A stretch of DNA of 64,000 nucleotides from Alphaproteobacteria bacterium (GTDB lineage: Bacteria > Pseudomonadota > Alphaproteobacteria > GCA-2731375), in the NCBI GenBank assembly GCA_965225945.1, contig CBDDBZ010000019.1, positions 13,594-77,593 on the forward strand, in the 5' to 3' direction. Positions 3,728 through 51,871 of this stretch are shown here, piece by piece (the first letter of the stretch is position 1; the number at the start of each line of letters is the position of its first letter). Made by a program: the position numbers and the translations under genes. The notes below the pieces were generated by a model. That model was not told the DNA's origin, ran no database searches, and saw only the letters and a list, made by a program, of their open reading frames with translations.

Positions 3728-4449
3728 TGTGGAACGGCGTGCAAAGTTGACCCCTGCTGAGGGGTGATCGGCGTCCAAATTTGACCCCCTGAGCCTGGCT
3801 AGTCCAAGTCACCTCGTTTTTGGGCGGACGAGGTGGTGGGGGATGTTGGTCGTGGAGACGATAGCGCGGATCCGGCGGGAGTATTTCGTCAAGGGGAAGC
3901 CGATCAAGGAGATCGTGCGGGACGTGAAGGTCTCGGGCAACACGGTGCGCAAGGTGATCCGTTCGCAGGCGACGGCGTTCACCTACGACCGGCGGGTCCA
4001 GCCGATGCCGAAGCTGGGGCCGTGGACGGCCGAGCTGGAGCGGATGCTGGAGGCCAACGAGACCAAGTCGAAGCGGGAGCGGCTGACGCTGCTACGGATC
4101 TCCGAAGCCCTCGAGGGTCTGGGCTATGGCGGCGGCTACGACGCGGTGCGGCGCTACGCCAAGGCGTGGCGGTGGCGCCGTTCGGCATCGACGGCGCAGA
4201 CCTATGTGCCGTTGGTGTTCTCGCCGGGCGAGGCCTATCAGTTCGACTGGAGCCACGAGTACGTGGTGCTGGCGGGGGTGACGACCAAGGTCAAGGTCGC
4301 GCACGTCCGGCTGTGCCACAGCCGAATGTTCTTCGTCCGCGCTTATCCGCGCGAGAGCCAGGAGATGGTGTTCGACGCCCACGACCGGGCATTCCGGCTG
4401 TTCCAGGGTGCCTGCCGGCGAGGCATCTACGACAACATGAAGACGGCGG
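3728..4449 (+). mobile_element. IS21-family element, left half (IRL plus 5' istA)
   Basis: Begins TGTGGAACGGCGTGCAAAGTTGACCCC with an internal repeat of the motif; truncated by IS256 at 4450. Confidence 0.9.
3843..4449 (+). pseudogene. istA: IS21 transposase IstA, N-terminal part
   Basis: HTH plus PGEAYQFDWS and RGIYDNMKTA, then interrupted. Confidence 0.9.
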
Positions 4450-4984
4450 GGGGATGTCCCGGGCTCTGTTGAAAAGCTGAAGTAGGCGTCGTCCGCCTGG
4501 AGCCGCTAGGCTCTGGGTGCTGATTCCATCAAGGAGAACGACGCCATGACCAAGACTACACGCAACGACCGTTCCTCGGAACCATCCTGTCGGCTCTTGC
4601 CATCGATGCCGGAGGCCTTCGACGATCTGCGCATGAGCGTCGATCGCTTCTGCCTTTTGGCGGGCCTCGAGTCTTTGAACGAGATGATGTCGGCGGACGC
4701 GGAAGCCTTGTGCGGTTCGCGCCACGCCCGCTCGGGCGAGCGCAAGGGCCATCGATGGGGCACGACCCGGAGCGAGATCGCCTACCACGGCGGCAAAGTG
4801 AAGGTCGAGCGCCCTCGGGTGCGGGACTTCGCGGGTCGGGAGATGAGCCTGCCGAGTTGGGAGCTGCTGTCGGAACCCGAACTCTTGCAAGCCTGGGCGA
4901 TGAATCTGATGGTGATCAACGTCTCGACCCGCAAGTATGCCCGCGCGGTGCGCCTGCCGGACGATGCGGGCGGCGATCTGCCGG
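4450..4984 (+). mobile_element. IS256-family element type B, 5' remnant
   Basis: Matches the start of the full copy at 49574; cut at 4984 by the IS3-like element. Confidence 0.92.
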
Positions 4985-5029
4985 TGAGTCGGACCCGATT
5001 TCCTTGGACACAGAATTGGCTTAATCGAA

Positions 5030-5461
5030 GTGTCCAAGGAGGACCGGAACATGACCGACAATTTTGAAAACAAAGTTGCTGTTGATGGGCCTGTGGTAAA
5101 CGAGGGCGAGCTTGGCTCGTCCACGTTTTCCCCGGGCCAGGTTTCGCCGGCAGGCCCGCTGGGACTTGGCCAGCGGTGGACGGTGACGCGCAAGCGTGAG
5201 GTTGCCCTGCGGCTTTTGCGTGGCGAGCCGGTGGAACTTTTGTCGCGGCAGTTGGGCGTGGAGATTTTCCGGCTCGAGCAGTGGCGTGAGAAGGCGATCG
5301 CCGGGATCGATGCCTCGCTCAAGGAACGCAAGGGCGATCCGGTAAAGGCGGAACTGGACATCGCCATGAAGCGGATCGGGGAGTTGATCATGCAGGTGGA
5401 ACTGCTGGAGGCCAAGACGGAGACGTCCGGCCCTTTGGGGCGGCGGAGGTCGCGGCGATGA
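5030..5461 (+). CDS. IS OrfA (HTH)
   Basis: RWTVTRKREVALRLLRGEPVELLSRQLGV; ATGA overlap with OrfB. Confidence 0.85.
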   Translation: MSKEDRNMTDNFENKVAVDGPVVNEGELGSSTFSPGQVSPAGPLGLGQRWTVTRKREVALRLLRGEPVELLSRQLGVEIFRLEQWREKAIAGIDASLKERKGDPVKAELDIAMKRIGELIMQVELLEAKTETSGPLGRRRSRR

Positions 5462-6369
5462 GTGCCGCCACCTCTCCCGGCACGGGTTTGGCCTACGGCC
5501 TCCAGCGGGTCTGTGCGGCCTGGGGTTTTGCCCGTTCCTCGTTCTACGCCATGAAATCCCGGCAGCAGGCCACCGCTGAGCGCCCACCAGCAAAGCGCCG
5601 GGGACCGAAGCCCTCGATCTCGGACGAGGCTCTGCTGGTGGCCATCGAGGCCGACCTGGAGGCATCCCCCTGGGAGGGCGAGGGACACCGCAAGGTCTGG
5701 GCTCGGCTTCGGGTCTGTCGTGGCATCCGTGTTTCCCGCAAGCGGGTGCTCCGGGTGATGCGCGAGAACAACCTGCTCTCGCCCCATCGCTGCCGCCGCC
5801 GTGGCGGAAATCCCCATGTCGGTGAGATCATCACCCATGCCCCCAACCTCATGTGGGGCACGGACGGCGTTCGGGTGTTCACGGTGGACGACGGCTGGGG
5901 CTGGATATTCACCGCCATCGAGCATTGGAACGCCGAGTGCGTCGGCTGGCATGTGTGCAAGCGAGGCGACCGCTTCGCCGCCCTTCAGCCGATCTCCATG
6001 GGGCTTGCGAGGCTGTATGCCTCGACCTCCGCCGGTGCGGCGCGGGGGCTGGCCTTGCGGATGGATCACGGCTCCCAGTATCTGTCGGACCACTTCACCA
6101 ACCAGATCAAGTTCTGGGGCATCCAGCCGTCCTACGCCTTCGTCGAACAGCCCCAGACCAACGGCGTCGCCGAGAGGTTCAATCGCACGCTCAAGGAACA
6201 GATCATCCATGGCCGCATCTACCGCAACATCGCGGAGCTGCGGAACGCCGTCCGCGGGTTCGTCGAACAGTACAATGCCCAGTGGATCGTGGAGAAGAAC
6301 GGCTACCTGAGCCCCGCTCAAGCTCGTCAGGCGTGGCACACCGCGATGTCACTCAGGCCCGCCGCATGA
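5458..6369 (+). CDS. IS OrfB, integrase-core (rve) transposase
   Basis: PNLMWGTD, MDHGSQY, PQTNGVAERFNRTLKE motifs. Confidence 0.92.
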   Translation: MSAATSPGTGLAYGLQRVCAAWGFARSSFYAMKSRQQATAERPPAKRRGPKPSISDEALLVAIEADLEASPWEGEGHRKVWARLRVCRGIRVSRKRVLRVMRENNLLSPHRCRRRGGNPHVGEIITHAPNLMWGTDGVRVFTVDDGWGWIFTAIEHWNAECVGWHVCKRGDRFAALQPISMGLARLYASTSAGAARGLALRMDHGSQYLSDHFTNQIKFWGIQPSYAFVEQPQTNGVAERFNRTLKEQIIHGRIYRNIAELRNAVRGFVEQYNAQWIVEKNGYLSPAQARQAWHTAMSLRPAA

Positions 6370-6552
6370 GACAAACTTGTGTCCAAGGAACCGGGTGCGA
6401 TACACCCGCGACAAGCCGTGTCGGCCCGGCGCCATGGCGCGACGCTTCCGAGGTTCGGCCCGGCGGACGACGTGGCGGATTGGCCGCGCCCGCCGCCCGA
6501 GTATGATATCGAGCGTGAGTTTCGGCATCGCACGCGCGAAACGGGGTGAGAC

Positions 6553-7230
6553 ATGGAGTGGCGGCGGCGGTTCGATGCGGTCCTCTTCGATCTCGACGGC
6601 ACCCTGGTGGAGACGGCACCGGATTTGACGGCGGCGCTGAACCACACGCTGGTTCACGTCGGCCTGCCGCCGGTCGCGCTCGACGAGGTCCGCCACATGA
6701 TCGGCGACGGCGCCCGCGCGCTCCTCGCCAAGGGCATCCAGGCAGCGGGCCGAGCCGCGGACGAGAAGACCTTCGCCGAATGGTTCGATATCTTGCTCGA
6801 GCATTATTCCCATCACGTCGCCGACGCGAGCCACCCCTTCCCCGACGTCGAGGCCCAGCTCCAGGCGCTCCGGGCCGGCGGCGCCCGCCTCGGGGTCTGC
6901 ACCAACAAGCCGATCGCGCTCACCGAAAAGCTGTTGGCGGAACTCGATCTCGCCCGCCATTTCGACGTCCTGATGGGGGGCGACAGCCTGCCCGTGCGCA
7001 AGCCGGATCCGGCGCACCTGTTGGAGAGCTTGAAGCGAATCGACGTCGCGCCCACGCGCGCGGTGATGGTGGGCGATTCCGGGAACGACGTCCAAGCCGC
7101 CCGCAACGCCGGTCTGCCGGTGATCGTGGTATCGTTCGGCTACACCGCGACACCGCCCGGCGAGCTCGGCGCCGACATGGTGATCGACGGCTTCGACGAG
7201 CTGCCGGCGGCGCTCTCGGCGCTCGCTTGA
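6553..7230 (+). CDS. gph: Phosphoglycolate phosphatase (HAD family)
   Basis: FDLDGTLVET, CTNKP, KPDP, MVGDSGND motifs. Confidence 0.9.
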   Translation: MEWRRRFDAVLFDLDGTLVETAPDLTAALNHTLVHVGLPPVALDEVRHMIGDGARALLAKGIQAAGRAADEKTFAEWFDILLEHYSHHVADASHPFPDVEAQLQALRAGGARLGVCTNKPIALTEKLLAELDLARHFDVLMGGDSLPVRKPDPAHLLESLKRIDVAPTRAVMVGDSGNDVQAARNAGLPVIVVSFGYTATPPGELGADMVIDGFDELPAALSALA

Positions 7231-7286
7231 CAGCCCCGGCCGCCGCTCCTATAGCGGGAGCCGGCCATCGCCCGTCGGGCCGATCG

Positions 7287-7363
7287 GGGCGCGTAGCTCA
7301 GGTGGTTAGAGCGCTACGCTCACATCGTAGAGGTCGCTGGTTCGAGTCCAGCCGCGCCCACCA
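7287..7363 (+). tRNA. tRNA-Val(CAC)
   Basis: Acceptor GGGCGCG/CGCGCCC, anticodon arm CTACG-CTCACAT-CGTAG, T-loop GTTCGAGTC, encoded CCA. Confidence 0.96.
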
Positions 7364-7715
7364 TTTTCGTCTACTTATCAGGCGCCTGAGACGAAATCTT
7401 CTTGTCGAATCCGAGCTTGCGGCGAGCCCCGTCCGGGCTTCGAAGTCTCCATTCCACCGGCCTAGTGTCCCGATTCCGAAGTTCGCATGATTTTCGCCTG
7501 CTGTTCAGCGATTTCGATTGTTCGGAGGCAGAAGCGCTGGATGGCGCCGAGGATGTCATCGGCGGATTTGGTCCATTTGAAGGGTTCGGGGTTCTGGTTT
7601 GTCGTGTCGATGTAGTCGAGGATGGTGCGCTCCAACTCCTTGGTGGAGCGATGGACGCCGCGCCTGATCTGCTTGTCGGTCAGCAGCCCGAACCAGCGCT
7701 CGACCTGGTTCAGCC

Positions 7716-8468
7716 CTTGCCTATCCGGTTATCACACACCCACTATATGTAGTGTGTCTCCTTGGACTGCAGGCAAGGGCCGGCGCAGGCGCATTGAGGA
7801 GGCGATCCGGCTAATTCTTGATTGTTCTGAAAACCGAACCGGAGTTTAATTCACGTCACGTATTTAACATCGGGGGACGGAACGGTGGCGACCAAGGGAA
7901 AAACGAAGAAACCCACGGCCAGACGGGAAGCTGCTGATGAAACGACATCGTCTGAGCGATTGACGGCACTAGTCGAAGAAAGCGACGCGCTGGCACGAAT
8001 CGTTGCGAAGAACCCGTCCGCGCCTGTTAGTCTCCTGCGCGTTTTGAGTCGCAGCGAAGACGAAGCGACACGCAAGAACGTGATCCTCAATCCGTTTACT
8101 TCATATGACGTATTGAGCGAACTTGAAAACCAGTTCACAGAGCTATTTGTGAATAATCCGGCACTCGAATCCTACAATTCAATGAAGCTCTGATTTCCTG
8201 GAATATTCCATCGGTGTCGTTCACCTCCGATTTCAGATAAATTTCAATGAAGTGACGGTCCTTTATGCAACGTGGCGTTTTGCCAAATCCGACTCAATGA
8301 TTAGGATTTCCACCACGCTAAAGTGTCGCCTAAAAGGCGCTACAATGCCGTCCGAGTCCCTGCTCGGCATCGCCGGAGATATCTCCGCTTCGACCTGCAC
8401 CGAGCTTTACTCAGGAAAATGGGTGCACACTACATATAGTGGGTGTGGGTGATAACCGGATAGGTAAG
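7716..8468 (+). mobile_element. Non-autonomous IS1595-derived cassette, copy 1 (753 bp)
   Basis: TIR CTTGCCTATCCGGTTATCAC…; 8-bp TSD GTTCAGCC at 7708-7715 and 8469-8476; slightly diverged from copies 2-4. Confidence 0.93.
7885..8193 (+). CDS. Passenger protein, leucine-rich-repeat-variant/HEAT-like (copy 1)
   Basis: 102 aa with VAKNPSAPVSLL, VILNPFTSYDVL and FVNNPAL repeats; GTG start after a GGGGGA RBS-like motif. Confidence 0.7.
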   Translation: MATKGKTKKPTARREAADETTSSERLTALVEESDALARIVAKNPSAPVSLLRVLSRSEDEATRKNVILNPFTSYDVLSELENQFTELFVNNPALESYNSMKL

Positions 8469-9536
8469 GTTCAGCCAGGAGGCGCTGGTGGGTGTGAAAT
8501 GGGCCTGCCAGCGCGGCCGTTTGGCGAACCAGTCGCGGATCGCCTTGGTCTTGTGGGTCCCGTAGTTGTCCATGACGATGTGGATGTCGAGATCAGCAGG
8601 GACGTTCGCCTCGACGAGGTCGAGGAATTTGCGGAACTCTCGGGCCCGATGGCGCGGGAAACATTTGCCGATGATCTCTCCCGTGGCGATGTCGAGGGCC
8701 GCGAAGAGAGAGGTCGTGCCGTGGCGCTTGTAGTCGTGGCTGCGCCGCTCCGCCTGCCCGGGGCGCATCGGCAAGAGGGGCTGGGAACGGTCCAAGGCCT
8801 GGATCTGGCTCTTTTCGTCGACACAGAGAACCAGGGCACGATCCGGCGGCGCCAAATACAGACCGACGATGTCGCGGACCTTCTCCACGAAGAAGGGATC
8901 GCTCGACAGCTTGAAGGTCTCCGAGCGATGCGGCTGCAAGCCGAAGGCCCGCCAAATGCGATGAATGGTCGAGGGCGCGTTGCCGCTCGCCCGCGCCATC
9001 GAGCGAAGGCTCCAATGGGTCGCGTCCGGCGGCGTCTCTTCCAGCGTCAGCCGGACCGCTTCCGCGATGGCGTCATCGCCGATTTGACGCGGCGCGCCGG
9101 GGCGGGGTTCGTCGTACAGACCGTCGAGGCCCTCCGCCGCATAGCGGCGACGCCACTTGCCCACGGTGTCCGCGCTCGCCTCGAGACGAACGGCGATCTC
9201 CTTGTTCTCCAACCCTTCCGCCGCCGCCAAGACGATCCGAGCCCGCCGCGCAAGCCCCTGCGACGTCTTGCGACGACGAGACAGCGCCTCCAATTCGGCG
9301 CGCTCGTCATCGCTCAAAGAGATCGTCACCGCCACTCTCGCCATCAATCGCGCCTCCTGAAAACAAATAGAGATATAATCATATCAATTTATCGATCAGG
9401 ACACCAGTGCATGATACCCTGGCGAGTGACCCAGAGGAGGAGCGGGGCGATCGAGACCGATGTCCATTGGTTTCACGCCACTCGATGACCTTCCGACGAA
9501 AAAATATGGTCTCGCCTCGTTGAAAGCGAAATTGCG

Positions 9537-45325: not shown

Positions 45326-46080
45326 CTTGCCTATCCGGTTATCACCCACACCCACTATATGTAGTGTGTCTCCTTGGACTGCAGGCAAGGGCCGGCGCAG
45401 GCGCATTGAGGAGGCGATCCGGCTAATTCTTGATTGTTCTGAAAACCGAACCGGAGTTTAATTCACGTCACGTACTTAACATCGGGGGACGGAACGGTGG
45501 CGACCAAGGGAAAAACGAAGAAACCCACGGCCAGACGGGAAGCTGCTGATGAAACGACATCGTCTGAGCGATTGACGGCACTAGTCGAAGAAAGCGACGC
45601 GCTGGCACGAATCGTTGCGAAGAACCCGTCCGCGCCTGTTAGTCTCCTGCGCGTTTTGAGTCGCAGCGAAGACGAAGCGACACGCAAGAACGTGATCCTC
45701 AATCCGTTTACTTCATATGACGTATTGAGCGAACTTGAAAACCAGTTCACAGAGCTATTTGTGAATAATCCGGCACTCGAATCCTACAATTCAATGAAGC
45801 TCTGATTTCCTGGAATATTCCATCGGTGTCGTTCACCTCCGATTTCAGATAAATTTCAATGAAGTGACGGTCCTTTATGCAACGTGGCGTTTTGCCAAAT
45901 CCGACTCAATGATTAGGATTTCCACCACGCTAAAGTGTCGCCTAAAAGGCGCTACAATGCCGTCCGAGTCCCTGCTCGGCATCGCCGGAGATATCTCCGC
46001 TTCGACCTGCACCGAGCTTTACTCAGGAAAATGGGTGCACACTACATATAGTGGGTGTGGGTGATAACCGGATAGGCAAG
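45326..46080 (+). mobile_element. Non-autonomous IS1595-derived cassette, copy 2 (755 bp)
   Basis: 43-bp perfect TIR (45326-45368 / 46038-46080). Confidence 0.93.
45497..45805 (+). CDS. LRV/HEAT-like passenger protein (copy 2)
   Basis: Identical 102-aa ORF. Confidence 0.7.
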   Translation: MATKGKTKKPTARREAADETTSSERLTALVEESDALARIVAKNPSAPVSLLRVLSRSEDEATRKNVILNPFTSYDVLSELENQFTELFVNNPALESYNSMKL

Positions 46081-46107
46081 GAATGAAGATTTCATGTAAG
46101 ATCGAAT

Positions 46108-47228
46108 CTTGCCTATCCGGTTAACGCCCATGACCGCTACATGTAGGGTGCCGCCACTCTCCCGAGTAAAGCTCGGCATAGGTTGGAGCAGAGGTGTCGC
46201 CCGCGATGCCGAGCAATGAGCGGAAGGCGTTGAACGGGTAGAACCGCCTGTTGAAGCGGAAGGTGAACTCGTTGAGGTAGGCTTGTAGGTGCTGGTGGCT
46301 AACGCCGTGGTGGATACCGATCAGCCACGTCTTCAGGTTGGCGAAAACCAGATGGATGATCGGCAGGTATTGCTCGGCAACCTCTGGATCACCACACTCG
46401 GCAACAGCGAAGTGCTCATAGCCGCGCTTACCGAGGCCAGCATAGCCGCTCCAATCGTCAGTAACGATCAGCGATCCCGGCGCGACGGTGCTCTCGACGA
46501 ACCCACAGAGCGACTCGGCGCTACGGTCGAGCACGACGGCGAGCCGAACGCGTCCGGCATAGCGTCCGTCTTTCCGGTTGTCGAGCTTGGTGCCCGGCTT
46601 TCGATGACGCACCTCGATGGCACAGGAGACGAGAACCTTGTGGTGAACACCACGGCCTTCCCCACGCGTTCGCCCGCCAACCCAGGTTTCGTCCACCTCA
46701 ACATGGTTCTTGGGCTGTCCACCGATCCTGTCTTGGTTGGGCCGCACCATGCCCGAGCGGAGCTTGTGGAGAATTTGAAAGGCCGTCTCGTAGCGCGAAA
46801 GACCAAGTTGCCGCTGAAACTGCACGGCGGACATGCCGGGCGTCTGACTGGCGACCAGATAAGCGGCCCAGAACCAGACGTTCAGCGGAGTGTGGCTACG
46901 CTCCATCACTGTTCCCACCGTCAGCCCGGTGTTCTGGCGGCACTTGCGGCAGCGCAGGACGCCAGGGCGGTTTTCAAAGTGGAACGGCTCTCCCGCCGTG
47001 CCGCAGTGCGGGCAGGCAAAGCCGTCTCCCCAGCGGGCTTTCTCCAGGTAGGCGGCGCAGGCCGCATCATCGGGGAAAAGTCGCTGGAACTCGGGTACCC
47101 GTTCAACGCCTTCCGCTCATTGCTCGGCATCGCGGGCGACACCTCTGCTCCAACCTATGCCGAGCTTTACTCGGGAGAGTGGCGGCACCCTACATGTAGC
47201 GGTCATGGGCGTTAACCGGATAGGCAAG
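46108..47228 (-). mobile_element. IS1595-family element with a duplicated right end (133-bp perfect TIR)
   Basis: 46108-46240 is the reverse complement of 47096-47228; TSD GATCGAAT at 46100-46107 and 47229-47236. Confidence 0.93.
46121..47095 (-). pseudogene. IS1595 (ISXO2-like) transposase lacking its start
   Basis: Zn ribbon CPHC…CRKC, VEVDETWVGG, TDDWSGY, YLNEFTFRFNRR; in-frame TGA just upstream within the duplicated arm. Confidence 0.88.
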
Positions 47229-47545
47229 GATCGAATCTTAGGCCATCTATTCGCTGAATGCTGTGATGGCCATCACATGCCGGCCATGGAATCGTGAAAT
47301 TCGCCGTCGCGCGCCAGGCGGTCCGGCCGGTTGGGCCTGGGGCTGGGCGGCGACTTCGACCTAATTTCCGGGCGCGGGGACCGACTCGGCGGCGCGTCGA
47401 GGCCAGCGCGACGCGAACCGGGAAACCACCAATGGACATATCCCTCGCCCTCGTCCCGAAGCTACCATGCCCCGCCGGGTTGGCCGGGGAAGCGGGTGGC
47501 CGGTCGATTCCGCGCCGGCGGATCACGCTCACAAGGAGGGATATC

Positions 47546-47852
47546 GTGCCCGAGGGACGCATCGTCTTCACCCGGATGGAGCGCTCTTCACCCGGATGGA
47601 GCGCGTGATCTTCGGCCGGGCGGCGCCACGCTCGCCCGCGAAACCGACGAGGTCGACCGGATCCGCGCCGCGCTGGGCGACCGCTTCGCCGGCCTGGGCT
47701 TGCTGCGGAGCCTGGCCGAGGTCGGTGTCGGGCGGCACGACTTCGAGCTCATCGCGCGCAACACGATGAACGATTCCTGGACCTATTCGAACCCGAGGAA
47801 GATCGCCGGTCCCGAGGACGTGATGGGGATCCTCCACGCCGCCGCCGGGTAG
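47546..47852 (+). pseudogene. Iron-containing alcohol dehydrogenase remnant with internal deletion
   Basis: RBS plus GTG, N-terminal FTRMERVIFG (with a 20-bp tandem duplication) fused to C-terminal GLLRSLAEVGV…SNPRKI. Confidence 0.6.
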
Positions 47853-47860
47853 CCGCCCCG

Positions 47861-48690
47861 CTAGTCGTCCGCTTGCGCTAGCAGGGTGGCGTTGCCGCCG
47901 GCCGCCGTGGTGTCGATGCAGAGCACCTGCTCGTGGACGAAGGGGCGGAGATCGCCGCCCGTCTCCAGCGCGACGATTCCGCCCTCGCGCGCCGCCAGCG
48001 CGCGGCGCAGCGCCGTCAAGGGCCCCGCCTCGCCGCGCGCGACGAGACCGGCCAGGTGCGGCAGCGCGACCAGGTCGGCGGGGTCGAGCGGACCGGCGCG
48101 CGCGACCACGGGCAAGCCGGCCTCCCCGAGACGGCTGGCGAGCGGCCCCGGGGGATCGATCATCAGCACCGCGTTGGCCAGCGCCAGCGCCCCCACCATC
48201 GCGGCATCGTCGCCCAGGACCAGAAACACGCCACGCGGCCGTAGCGAAATCCGGTTGCTCTCTCCGGTCGGACCGGGGAGCTCGGCGGGCGCATCGAGCA
48301 GGGCCTGGGCGGCCTCCAGCGCGGCCGAGGGTTCCGCCATGGGGCTGCCCAGCAACGCCCGGAGCAGAGCCGGTCGATCCCCCCGCCGGGCCCAGTCCGG
48401 TTGCAGCAGGGCGAGACGCGCCATCTCGTGCCCGAGCGTCGCCGCCTCCGACAGCGTTCCGAGCACCAGGGCGATCCCGGGCCGGCAATCCGGGCGGCGG
48501 CGAAAGCGCGGCAGATAGTTGGGCCCGCCCGCCTTCGGCCCGGTGCCGGAGTTGCCCCGCCCGCCGAACGGTTGCGAGCCGACGACGGCGCCGATTTGGT
48601 TGCGATTGACGTAGAGGTTGCCGGCCTGGATCCGCTCGACCACCCGCTGCACCCGGCGGTCGACCCGGGTGTGGAGGCCGAAGGTCAGGC
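47861..48690 (-). pseudogene. putA: C-terminal fragment of PutA (P5C dehydrogenase part)
   Basis: GLTFGLHTR, AGNLYVNRNQIGAVVGSQPFGG, GTGPKAGGPNYL, LPGPTGESN, IDTTAAGGNA; cut by cassette copy 3. Confidence 0.92.
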
Positions 48691-49445
48691 CTTGCCTATC
48701 CGGTTATCACCCACACCCACTATATGTAGTGTGCACCCATTTTCCTGAGTAAAGCTCGGTGCAGGTCGAAGCGGAGATATCTCCGGCGATGCCGAGCAGG
48801 GACTCGGACGGCATTGTAGCGCCTTTTAGGCGACACTTTAGCGTGGTGGAAATCCTAATCATTGAGTCGGATTTGGCAAAACGCCACGTTGCATAAAGGA
48901 CCGTCACTTCATTGAAATTTATCTGAAATCGGAGGTGAACGACACCGATGGAATATTCCAGGAAATCAGAGCTTCATTGAATTGTAGGATTCGAGTGCCG
49001 GATTATTCACAAATAGCTCTGTGAACTGGTTTTCAAGTTCGCTCAATACGTCATATGAAGTAAACGGATTGAGGATCACGTTCTTGCGTGTCGCTTCGTC
49101 TTCGCTGCGACTCAAAACGCGCAGGAGACTAACAGGCGCGGACGGGTTCTTCGCAACGATTCGTGCCAGCGCGTCGCTTTCTTCGACTAGTGCCGTCAAT
49201 CGCTCAGACGATGTCGTTTCATCAGCAGCTTCCCGTCTGGCCGTGGGTTTCTTCGTTTTTCCCTTGGTCGCCACCGTTCCGTCCCCCGATGTTAAGTACG
49301 TGACGTGAATTAAACTCCGGTTCGGTTTTCAGAACAATCAAGAATTAGCCGGATCGCCTCCTCAATGCGCCTGCGCCGGCCCTTGCCTGCAGTCCAAGGA
49401 GACACACTACATATAGTGGGTGTGGGTGATAACCGGATAGGCAAG
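48691..49445 (-). mobile_element. Non-autonomous IS1595-derived cassette, copy 3 (inverted)
   Basis: Reverse complement of copy 2. Confidence 0.93.
48966..49274 (-). CDS. LRV/HEAT-like passenger protein (copy 3)
   Basis: Identical 102-aa ORF. Confidence 0.7.
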   Translation of the reverse strand: MATKGKTKKPTARREAADETTSSERLTALVEESDALARIVAKNPSAPVSLLRVLSRSEDEATRKNVILNPFTSYDVLSELENQFTELFVNNPALESYNSMKL

Positions 49446-49573
49446 GTTCGAACATCCATTGGTAATGCACGAAGGCGAGCCACGAGCCGGCCACGACAAA
49501 GGCCGTGCCGATGGCGGCGATCGCCAGACCCGCGTAAGCGCCGAAGCGCCGTAACAACACGATCAGGAGCAGG

Positions 49574-51024
49574 GGGGATGTCCCGGGCTCTGTTGAAAAG
49601 CTGAAGTAGGCGTCGTCCGCCTGGAGCCGCTAGGCTCTGGGTGCTGATTCCATCAAGGAGAACGACGCCATGACCAAGACTACACGCAACGACCGTTCCT
49701 CGGAACCATCCTGTCGGCTCTTGCCATCGATGCCGGAGGCCTTCGACGATCTGCGCATGAGCGTCGATCGCTTCTGCCTTTTGGCGGGCCTCGAGTCTTT
49801 GAACGAGATGATGTCGGCGGACGCGGAAGCCTTGTGCGGTTCGCGCCACGCCCGCTCGGGCGAGCGCAAGGGCCATCGATGGGGCACGACCCGGAGCGAG
49901 ATCGCCTACCACGGCGGCAAAGTGAAGGTCGAGCGCCCTCGGGTGCGGGACTTCGCGGGTCGGGAGATGAGCCTGCCGAGTTGGGAGCTGCTGTCGGAAC
50001 CCGAACTCTTGCAAGCCTGGGCGATGAATCTGATGGTGATCAACGTCTCGACCCGCAAGTATGCCCGCGCGGTGCGCCTGCCGGACGATGCGGGCGGCGA
50101 TCTGCCGGCGGCATCGGGTGACGCAACCTCGAAGTCGGCGGTCTCGCGCCGTTTCGTGGCGTTGACGCGAAGCAAGCTGAAGGCCTGGCTGGCGAGCCCG
50201 CTCGACGATCTCGATCTCGTGGTGCTCCAGATCGACGGGCTCCATGTCGGCGATCACCTGATGGTGGCGGCGATCGGCATCGACACCGGCGGCGCGAAGC
50301 ACGTGCTGGGCCTGGCCGAGGGCGCGACGGAGAACGCGGCCACGGTGCAAGCCATGCTCGACAACCTGATCGAGCGCGGTCTCGATCCCGAACGGCCTCG
50401 GCTCTACATCGTCGACGGCGCCAAGGCGCTCTCGAAGGCGATCCGGCGGACCTTCGGGCGGGCGGCGGCCCTCCAGCGCTGCCAGGTGCACAAGGGGCGC
50501 AACATCACGGACCGGCTGGACGAGAGCCTCCATGCCGGCGTCAGGAAGGTCTTGCGGCAGGCCTGGCAGCAGGACGACGCGGCCAAGGCCGAACGGCTCT
50601 TGCGCAACCTCGCCCGCCGTCTGGAGCATGACGCACCCGGCGTCTCGGGCTCGATCCTGGAGGGCCTGGACGAGATCCTGACGGTGATCCGGCTCGGCCT
50701 CCCGCCGCAACTTCGACACTCGCTGGCTTGCACCAACGCCATCGAGAACGCGATCGGCACCGTCCGGACGGTGCAGCGGAACGTCAAGCGCTGGCGCAAC
50801 GCCGAGATGGCGCTGCGTTGGACCGCCGCCGGCCTCTTGGAGGCGCAAAAGACCTTCCGCCGCCTCAAGGCCTACCGCCAGCTCCCCGTCCTTGACGCCG
50901 CCCTGCGGGAGGCGGTGAGAAAGGCCGGAGCAAAGTCCGTCATTGAAGACATCGAGGTGGCCGCGTAGCCTCTCGATCAGACGATGCCTATCTCGCACTT
51001 TTCAACATTGGGCGGGACATCGCC
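49574..51024 (+). mobile_element. IS256-family element type B (full length)
   Basis: TIR GGGGATGTCCCG / GGCGATGTCCCG; 8-bp TSD GGAGCAGG at 49566-49573 and 51025-51032. Confidence 0.95.
49670..50968 (+). CDS. IS256 transposase
   Basis: LQIDGL, IVDGAKAL, LQRCQVHK, CTNAIEN. Confidence 0.93.
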   Translation: MTKTTRNDRSSEPSCRLLPSMPEAFDDLRMSVDRFCLLAGLESLNEMMSADAEALCGSRHARSGERKGHRWGTTRSEIAYHGGKVKVERPRVRDFAGREMSLPSWELLSEPELLQAWAMNLMVINVSTRKYARAVRLPDDAGGDLPAASGDATSKSAVSRRFVALTRSKLKAWLASPLDDLDLVVLQIDGLHVGDHLMVAAIGIDTGGAKHVLGLAEGATENAATVQAMLDNLIERGLDPERPRLYIVDGAKALSKAIRRTFGRAAALQRCQVHKGRNITDRLDESLHAGVRKVLRQAWQQDDAAKAERLLRNLARRLEHDAPGVSGSILEGLDEILTVIRLGLPPQLRHSLACTNAIENAIGTVRTVQRNVKRWRNAEMALRWTAAGLLEAQKTFRRLKAYRQLPVLDAALREAVRKAGAKSVIEDIEVAA

Positions 51025-51116: not shown

Positions 51117-51871
51117 CTTGCCTATCCGGTTATCACCCACACCCACTATATGTAGTGTGTCTCCTTGGACTGCAGGCAAGGGCCGGCGCAGGCGCATTGA
51201 GGAGGCGATCCGGCTAATTCTTGATTGTTCTGAAAACCGAACCGGAGTTTAATTCACGTCACGTACTTAACATCGGGGGACGGAACGGTGGCGACCAAGG
51301 GAAAAACGAAGAAACCCACGGCCAGACGGGAAGCTGCTGATGAAACGACATCGTCTGAGCGATTGACGGCACTAGTCGAAGAAAGCGACGCGCTGGCACG
51401 AATCGTTGCGAAGAACCCGTCCGCGCCTGTTAGTCTCCTGCGCGTTTTGAGTCGCAGCGAAGACGAAGCGACACGCAAGAACGTGATCCTCAATCCGTTT
51501 ACTTCATATGACGTATTGAGCGAACTTGAAAACCAGTTCACAGAGCTATTTGTGAATAATCCGGCACTCGAATCCTACAATTCAATGAAGCTCTGATTTC
51601 CTGGAATATTCCATCGGTGTCGTTCACCTCCGATTTCAGATAAATTTCAATGAAGTGACGGTCCTTTATGCAACGTGGCGTTTTGCCAAATCCGACTCAA
51701 TGATTAGGATTTCCACCACGCTAAAGTGTCGCCTAAAAGGCGCTACAATGCCGTCCGAGTCCCTGCTCGGCATCGCCGGAGATATCTCCGCTTCGACCTG
51801 CACCGAGCTTTACTCAGGAAAATGGGTGCACACTACATATAGTGGGTGTGGGTGATAACCGGATAGGCAAG
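51117..51871 (+). mobile_element. Non-autonomous IS1595-derived cassette, copy 4 (755 bp)
   Basis: 8-bp TSD GTTCGACG at 51109-51116 and 51872-51879. Confidence 0.95.
51288..51596 (+). CDS. LRV/HEAT-like passenger protein (copy 4)
   Basis: Identical 102-aa ORF. Confidence 0.7.
   Translation: MATKGKTKKPTARREAADETTSSERLTALVEESDALARIVAKNPSAPVSLLRVLSRSEDEATRKNVILNPFTSYDVLSELENQFTELFVNNPALESYNSMKL

Follow-up and report, generated by a model that had tools for sequence, protein, structure and literature searches.

How did a 755-bp element without a transposase gene come to stand in four places within one stretch of 64,000 nucleotides of an alphaproteobacterial genome (hereinafter referred to as the window), and what does the single small gene that it carries do? 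The reference copy (copy 2; 45326..46080, forward strand) begins with a 43-bp terminal inverted repeat (left TIR; 45326..45368, forward), which is right-end-like and has no -35 box such as native left ends of the resident IS1595 group carry. This is followed by a conserved 5' non-coding segment (45369..45496, forward) with a purine-rich stretch ahead of the start, by a 102-aa passenger gene (45497..45805, forward), a stand-alone N-terminal LRV-repeat module (Pfam LRV_2) under purifying selection, and by a spacer (45806..45954) that is mostly missing from short family members and has a GC content of 45% over cassette positions 506-630. The right arm (45955..46080, forward) is a remnant of the 3' end of an IS1595 transposase gene (peptide at 45969-46064) and closes with the right 43-bp TIR (46038..46080, reverse), the perfect inverse of the left one. 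These 31 codons are all that the cassette retains of a transposase.

Copies 2, 3 (48691..49445, reverse; ORF 48966-49274) and 4 (51117..51871, forward; ORF 51288-51596) were identical across 755 bp, including the perfect 43-bp TIR. Copy 1 (7716..8468, forward; 753 bp; ORF 7885-8193) lacked 2 bp in the left TIR, had two substitutions and encoded the same protein. Copies 1 and 4 were flanked by perfect 8-bp target duplications (TSDs), and copies 2 and 3 had none of their own. The first-pass annotation of the window had described the four copies, their differences and these two TSDs in the same way, and sequence comparison bore all of this out. Around the copies, 4291-9488 and 49572-50968 were crowded with other IS-related genes, including an integrase-core (rve) ORF (5458-6369), a DDE_3 transposase adjoining copy 1 (8430-9347) and a Mutator-family transposase (49670-50968). 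Within the left arm, 45379-45389 and its family equivalents, at position 53-54 of the element, matched an outward-facing IS tip at 9-10 of 11 bases; the match was found in 5 of 54 family elements and is perhaps the trace of a tiny MITE-like unit.

The source genome (G000) is a 6.27-Mb draft in 39 contigs with 5.6% contamination. A genome-wide BLASTN search with a TSD count, which had been proposed as a check on the four copies, recovered 65 cassette copies with both ends, each as a single hit, and another 21 pieces no shorter than 100 bp, so that all cassette DNA came to 58.7 kb, or 0.94% of the genome. Perfect 8-bp TSDs flanked 49 of the 65 full copies, four had one mismatch and 12 had more; among cross-pairs of TSDs, used as a chance control, a perfect match occurred in 4 of 2756. 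Copies identical to copy 2 numbered 22. The cassette has thus inserted repeatedly with 8-bp duplication, and the earlier description of a recently active, transposase-free IS1595-derived passenger cassette is supported by the TSDs and the identical copies. That description had missed the genome-wide copy number, the wide family to which the cassette belongs and the selection on its gene.

Among the 12 copies without a TSD of their own, two pairs (on contigs C33 and C24) were flanked by a shared perfect outer TSD. In the window, the inverted copies 2 and 3 bound a candidate composite transposon (45326..49445) whose outer flanks match at 7 of 8 positions. Its empty site, with the 4.1-kb block removed, restores a 737-codon frame running into a hybrid histidine kinase; the block is a probable composite transposon interrupting that gene. 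From the shared outer TSDs and the restored frame, it follows that cassette pairs probably carry host DNA as composites, which would make the cassette able both to move host DNA and to break genes. The overall rate of gene disruption was uninformative, as most sites fell in long open frames whether they were empty sites (41 of 52) or chosen at random (376 of 400).

A search for an intact IS1595 with matching ends identified a 1105-bp ISAcr1-like element (hereinafter the helper), of which 10 full copies are present. Seven have an ORF of 339 aa, two one of 348 aa and one an ORF of 254 aa; nine copies thus harbored a 339- or 348-aa ORF. Its single gene encodes a transposase with the Pfam Zn-ribbon and DDE_Tnp_IS1595 domains and a match to NF033547, 81% identical to an ISAcr1-labelled RefSeq transposase from Acidiphilium plasmids. 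ISAcr1 itself presumably belongs in the ISSod11 group. A Zn-ribbon plus DDE_Tnp_IS1595 transposase and an 8-bp target duplication are given as features of the IS1595 family in the relevant part of PMC8101967, and the 8-bp duplication was seen for both helper and cassette. The helper ends and the cassette had 15-16 terminal bases in common, and the helper right end was 77% identical to the cassette right arm over 126 bp, in accordance with the earlier reading of this arm as encoding a transposase C-terminus. The cassette TSD profile was palindromic. Scored with a matrix built from cassette TSDs, flanks of helper right ends reached 4.72 (n = 18) and cassette flanks 4.95, against -1.82 (n = 17) for a second resident IS1595 and -5.58 for random DNA, a comparison that is not fully independent, since several helper flanks abut cassette copies. 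This second IS1595 (1078 bp; G000:C37:313383 and 17 other ends) showed approximately 36% amino acid identity to the helper and a different target preference, and it has inserted into a cassette TIR.

We conclude, with a probability of roughly 0.85, that the cassette is a non-autonomous IS1595-family mobile insertion cassette (MIC) mobilised by the resident ISAcr1-like helper. Mobilisation in trans, as first suggested from the window, is supported as the most likely route by a helper with matching tips and target preference. In the proposed mechanism, the DDE transposase of the helper would bind the two approximately 40-bp cassette ends in trans and insert the element at loosely palindromic 8-bp sites, which become duplicated. 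Native left ends would double as the transposase promoter in the helper IS group. The cassette ends are both promoter-poor and right-end-like and have changed together within each family member. By analogy with Mos1, for which PMC4505599 gives a 26-fold better transposition in vitro with two preferred ends, paired right-type ends probably serve as a better substrate than the ends of the helper; this would account for approximately 65 cassette copies against 10 helper copies. Our committed guess for the 102-aa protein is that it favours the spread of the element, possibly through contact with the borrowed transposase as the likeliest route. Against the helper link, genome G029 contained many helper copies and only broken cassette pieces, so the presence of a helper does not guarantee amplification. 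Further, no helper match was found in the fragmented assemblies of G017, G325 and G326, which bear the cassette or its relatives.

The element at 46108, whose tip shares its terminal 16 bp with the cassette as noted before, had been described as a neighbouring IS1595. It is not an intact one but a 1121-bp two-right-end derivative of the helper (46108..47228, reverse) with a 133-bp perfect TIR and an 8-bp TSD, in which the inverted 133-bp right end stands in place of the first 115 bp, namely the native left end, the promoter and the start codon. A second copy lay at G000:C34:188810-189930 with a different 8-bp TSD. The junction is a 10-bp palindrome at a short repeat found near both helper ends, and a template switch is suggested as the origin of this derivative. 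A further type, at G000:C1:44070-45700 and four like loci, consisted of a complete helper and, after 13 bp of spacer, an inverted 513-bp 3' part of the helper, and it moves as a unit with two right ends; five such composites were complete (1631-1658 bp, 7-8-bp TSDs) and a sixth was cut by a contig end. Taken together, two-right-end helper derivatives with 7-8-bp TSDs stood at seven complete loci, two of which had flanks in common, and such derivatives have transposed.

Related elements outside the source genome showed other end arrangements. Autonomous ISAcr1-like elements of G323 and G324 (L286-L291) had an extra promoter-poor end approximately 52 bp outside a degenerate native left end (left ends near L286:1337-1431), with the TSD at the outer end; here end and promoter are uncoupled. 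The idea that these outer left ends are right ends was rejected, as they were classified as tie or left. Viral-contig relatives of the helper (L212-L274) with both ends were mostly 1.4-2.6 kb long and contained at least one small ORF between the left end and the transposase, and none of the 63 loci had an LRV gene beside the transposase.

The window cassette is the long form of a widespread family of approximately 520-580 bp. A near-length search returned 234 passenger homologs, and most of those listed were approximately 102 aa long. Of 81 family loci examined (15 from genomes and 66 from metagenomes), 53 had both ends, mostly 516-582 bp in size, and 19 of these 53 had a perfect TSD. At least one end was present at 68 of 70 loci with at least 67% identity and at none of eight distant LRV homologs; three fragments of 20-30 residues without ends (L091-L093) were excluded from this count. 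The other two of the 70 were one locus seen twice (L045:200-626 and L046:616-1042), which had an intact passenger ORF without ends, adjoining an acyl-carrier-like ORF, and represents a stranded or domesticated copy. Named carriers were mostly Alphaproteobacteria MAGs. Matching DNA was found in 8 of 41 genomes searched, the source genome included, and several of these matches were to the ends only. The search for passenger relatives on viral contigs found none, and the plasmid search returned only distant cyanobacterial LRV genes. In G213, a genome of another family, there were six full-length ORF matches; at all five loci fetched, the copies were 98.8-99.6% identical, each with its own perfect TSD, and the helper there was 99% identical. 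The near-identical cassette together with the 99% identical helper points to a recent horizontal spread of both.

Compared with the short forms, the 755-bp form has approximately 209 bp extra in the right arm. With a midpoint root, the deeper branches were all short, and the long forms lay together with short ones in a single branch of poor resolution. A reading of the 755-bp forms as one derived clade lost ground once L045 was added, and the long forms do not make up a single clade (one-clade test, p-AU 0.025). The long form is likely of secondary origin; a search for the donor of its spacer found none.

Whether the two ends of the cassette derive from two right ends, as first proposed, was addressed with native ends of related elements. 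TTGACA occupied positions 14-19 in 36 of 44 distinct native left ends, with a -10-like box 17 bp further, and judged from these motifs a sigma-70-like promoter appears to sit at a fixed place in native left ends, right ends being without it. At position 16, A stood in 32 of 34 cassette-family left ends, against G in 41 of the 44 native ones; at position 36, C was absent from the family left ends (0/34) and occurred in 30 of the 44 native ones. The native end nearest to each of 32 family left ends was a right end in 28 cases, a tie in four and a left end in none, also when only the four closest helpers served as reference; the controls placed 41 of 44 native left ends and 38 of 41 native right ones correctly. 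A weight-matrix test (44 left and 42 right native ends), which is dominated by a distant clade, was near neutral, with right-like calls for 22 of 34 left and 22 of 39 right ends. An early classification had rested on three distinct native end pairs and its control failed. Given the near-neutral matrix result, end typing relies on the nearest-neighbour tests with controls. The window TIR itself tied against its own helper, with 35 of 43 bases matching at the left end and 35 of 43 at the right. It matched the ISAcr1 right end at 39 of 43 bases, and given this better fit it may have been shaped by a helper that came earlier or by a different one. The two-right-end claim is partly supported, in that the family's left ends lie nearest to native right ends and lack the promoter signature; the tie with the resident helper and the neutral matrix speak against it.

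A second part of that claim, in which the left TIR is an inverted duplicate of that same right end, was not supported. Past base 43, the left arm resembled neither helper end (z from -0.7 to 1.3). Each family member's left and right ends co-varied, with 35.7 of 39 positions agreeing against a maximum of 34.5 in 2000 shuffles that leave relatedness uncontrolled. Only one other long form, L008, has a distinct right end; there, as in L033-L038, the left end had the window bases at 31-36 and the right end differed. The perfect 43-bp repeat looks like recent end-homogenisation, and since the left ends of near relatives already match the window while their right ends differ, the copying probably ran from left to right. 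We give only a little under even odds to the alternative that the ends began as an ordinary left and right pair, of which the left one lost its promoter bases and was homogenised, in which case two right ends would describe a sequence type and not an origin. The first 32 bp of the window TIR match the resident helper left end at 30 positions, and the score at the -10 position (of 6) was 3.16 in cassette left ends, close to 3.41 in native left ends and above 2.32 in right ends. The homogenisation itself and the left arm devoid of right-end sequence past base 43 agree with such a pair. Against this origin, not one of the 32 cassette left ends was nearest to a native left end under well-behaved controls, and literal right-end duplication occurs in the same helper.

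The passenger protein matched Pfam LRV_2 (PF25591) with 34.1 bits (gathering cut-off 27) and corresponds to the N-terminal two-repeat-plus-cap module of long LRV proteins, with which an Atlas feature search agreed. In the family, 48 of 54 elements had an intact ORF, and 47 of these encoded 101-104 aa. Residues E31, E32, E58, E60 and E81 and a C-terminal Y-N-x-x-K motif were conserved in the family and rare in 125 long LRV proteins. Among 41 distinct intact ORFs, the median dN/dS was 0.28 and all usable pairs (812 of 820, with dS >0.05) were below 1, the pairs being non-independent and broken ORFs excluded; other frames gave 0.45-2.11. A 95-aa antisense ORF was rejected as a gene, as it had no selection signal of its own. 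In the source genome, 54 of 65 full copies passed the ORF test (48 identical and six variants) and 11 failed, some of which may be intact because the test demands exact terminal residues. The variants carried 10 non-synonymous and no synonymous changes, so the individual copies show no purifying selection; the variants could reflect neutral decay in dead-end copies, or else errors of sequencing. Selection appears to work on those lineages that go on spreading. AlphaFold gave a middling model for the passenger (pLDDT 64). A Foldseek search with this model against the PDB and a viral library gave no match at E<=0.001, a PDB sequence search gave nothing significant, and no NCBIfam family matched.

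What the passenger does can be approached through its distribution and its selection. One tentative reading makes it a transposition accessory: as a small helical-repeat adaptor, it would bind the borrowed IS1595 transposase and either boost its action in trans or bias it to the cassette. The near confinement of the gene to the cassette (68 of 70 close loci) is in line with this, as are the family-specific acidic residues with the Y-N-x-x-K motif and selection across lineages but not among copies within one genome. Transposases are likewise selected across lineages and not among the copies of one genome. A predicted complex of the passenger with the helper transposase scored 0.34 against 0.00 for the best of three controls, which lends this reading a little weight; its runs agreed in at least 93% of contacts, with a partner pLDDT of at least 85. 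Of 157 solved complexes, 116 reached the mark applied to such models, as did 2 of 215 mismatches; at scores <=0.60 it was reached by 18 of the 157 solved complexes and both mismatches. A pass of this kind is rated as more often wrong than right unless the pairing is likely beforehand, and it gives no interface. An accessory role also sits poorly with the viral-contig transposases, all 63 of which lack an LRV gene nearby, with the end-less L045/L046 locus, which retains an intact ORF, and with gene-less MITEs, which spread without any gene. In a stronger form, about which we are more doubtful, the cassette would encode its own transposase-piracy factor: the LRV mini-protein would bind, redirect or stabilise the IS1595 transposase in trans, and the promoter-free twin right-type ends would out-compete those of the helper. 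The cassette would then be a true IS satellite, akin to phage satellites, and not passive cargo.

An equally tentative reading is that the passenger benefits the host, as a stress or phage defence protein or a protein-binding scaffold, in the manner of ordinary MIC cargo, and that copy number reflects good ends only. Known MICs, as presented in parts of PMC4337579, bear endopeptidase, resistance or regulatory genes, and the purifying selection on the passenger and the intact end-less copy beside the acyl-carrier-like ORF (a label taken from its translation) would fit such a role. A beneficial gene would be expected to occur as single fixed copies, yet nearly all close homologs remain in a mobile context; moreover, the copies of the source genome show no synonymous excess, and the NCBIfam, solved-structure and fold searches hinted at no function. 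We hold it improbable that the passenger is selfish by a different route, acting as an addiction or antidote factor or working against silencing of the element by the host, with no contact to the transposase. Selection at the level of the element is consistent with it, and helical-repeat proteins often serve as binders or antidotes. Neither a second conserved gene nor an Rfam RNA was found in the cassette, the long antisense frame has no separate selection signal, and 21 partial pieces persist in the genome, though intact copies could complement them. Finally, we regard it as negligibly probable that the copies are assembly artefacts of a contaminated 39-contig draft, since this is contradicted by the 49 perfect TSDs, by the independent G213 copies with TSDs of their own, and by a 729-bp cassette contig present in runs X1 and X18.

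The cassette was also found in RNA runs of three studies, and contigs from 4 of 20 RNA runs covered cassette and helper alike, which is no sign of transcription as such; a promoter scan and an Rfam search gave nothing above chance.

Non-autonomous IS derivatives are usually viewed either as gene-less MITEs or as cassettes with cargo useful to the host. Here, one small gene has been kept in the same minimal cassette across many lineages and under selection. Should its protein turn out to work on the borrowed transposase, it would represent an accessory to transposition of a new kind and offer a direct handle on how transposases act in trans. The difference between a promoter-bearing left end and a promoter-free right end offers a testable reason for the repeated rise of twin right-type derivatives.

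Among known systems, the transporter IS (tIS) of the IS1595 family, which PMC3129680 names, resemble the cassette in having IS1595 ends with passenger genes; unlike the cassette, they retain the transposase, and their viral-contig counterparts had an LRV gene at 0 of 63 loci. ISAcr1 is an IS of approximately 1.1 kb whose right end agrees with the cassette TIR at 39 of 43 bases, but as an autonomous element it bears a promoter in its left end and lacks a passenger. MITEs are short and without a coding gene, whereas the cassette has a gene under purifying selection. Long LRV proteins (PF01816, LRV; PF25591, LRV_2) share the N-terminal module with the passenger, which differs from them in standing alone at 101-104 aa with its own acidic residues and C-terminal motif; the literature search found no function for the passenger LRV module. 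The mariner elements Mos1 and Mboumar-9 offer a parallel in that their natural ends are unequal and two preferred ends transpose better, according to PMC4505599, but they are eukaryotic Tc1/mariner elements engineered in vitro, and for this IS1595 an end preference is proposed by functional analogy.

The closest likeness is to MICs. A literature search turned up no account of this cassette family, nor one of an IS derivative bearing an LRV gene, though a catalogue such as ISfinder may list it. In the sections of PMC4337579 and PMC3129680 that concern them, MICs are marked by IS-related inverted repeats around a passenger, target duplications and a cognate transposase elsewhere in the genome, and the cassette has a passenger between IS-related ends, no transposase of its own, TSDs and a cognate transposase in the genome. 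MIC231 of Bacillus cereus and the TnXax1-type MICs of Xanthomonas are likewise presented there as passengers between inverted repeats without a transposase. In contrast to these, the cassette belongs to the IS1595 family, is present in at least 65 full copies in one genome, has ends that are both right-end-like and co-evolving, and keeps one invariant gene across a wide family where theirs is varied adaptive cargo. The cassette is thus a MIC, an element of a known kind, from a family that appears to be undescribed and whose one gene seems to be under selection at the level of the element.
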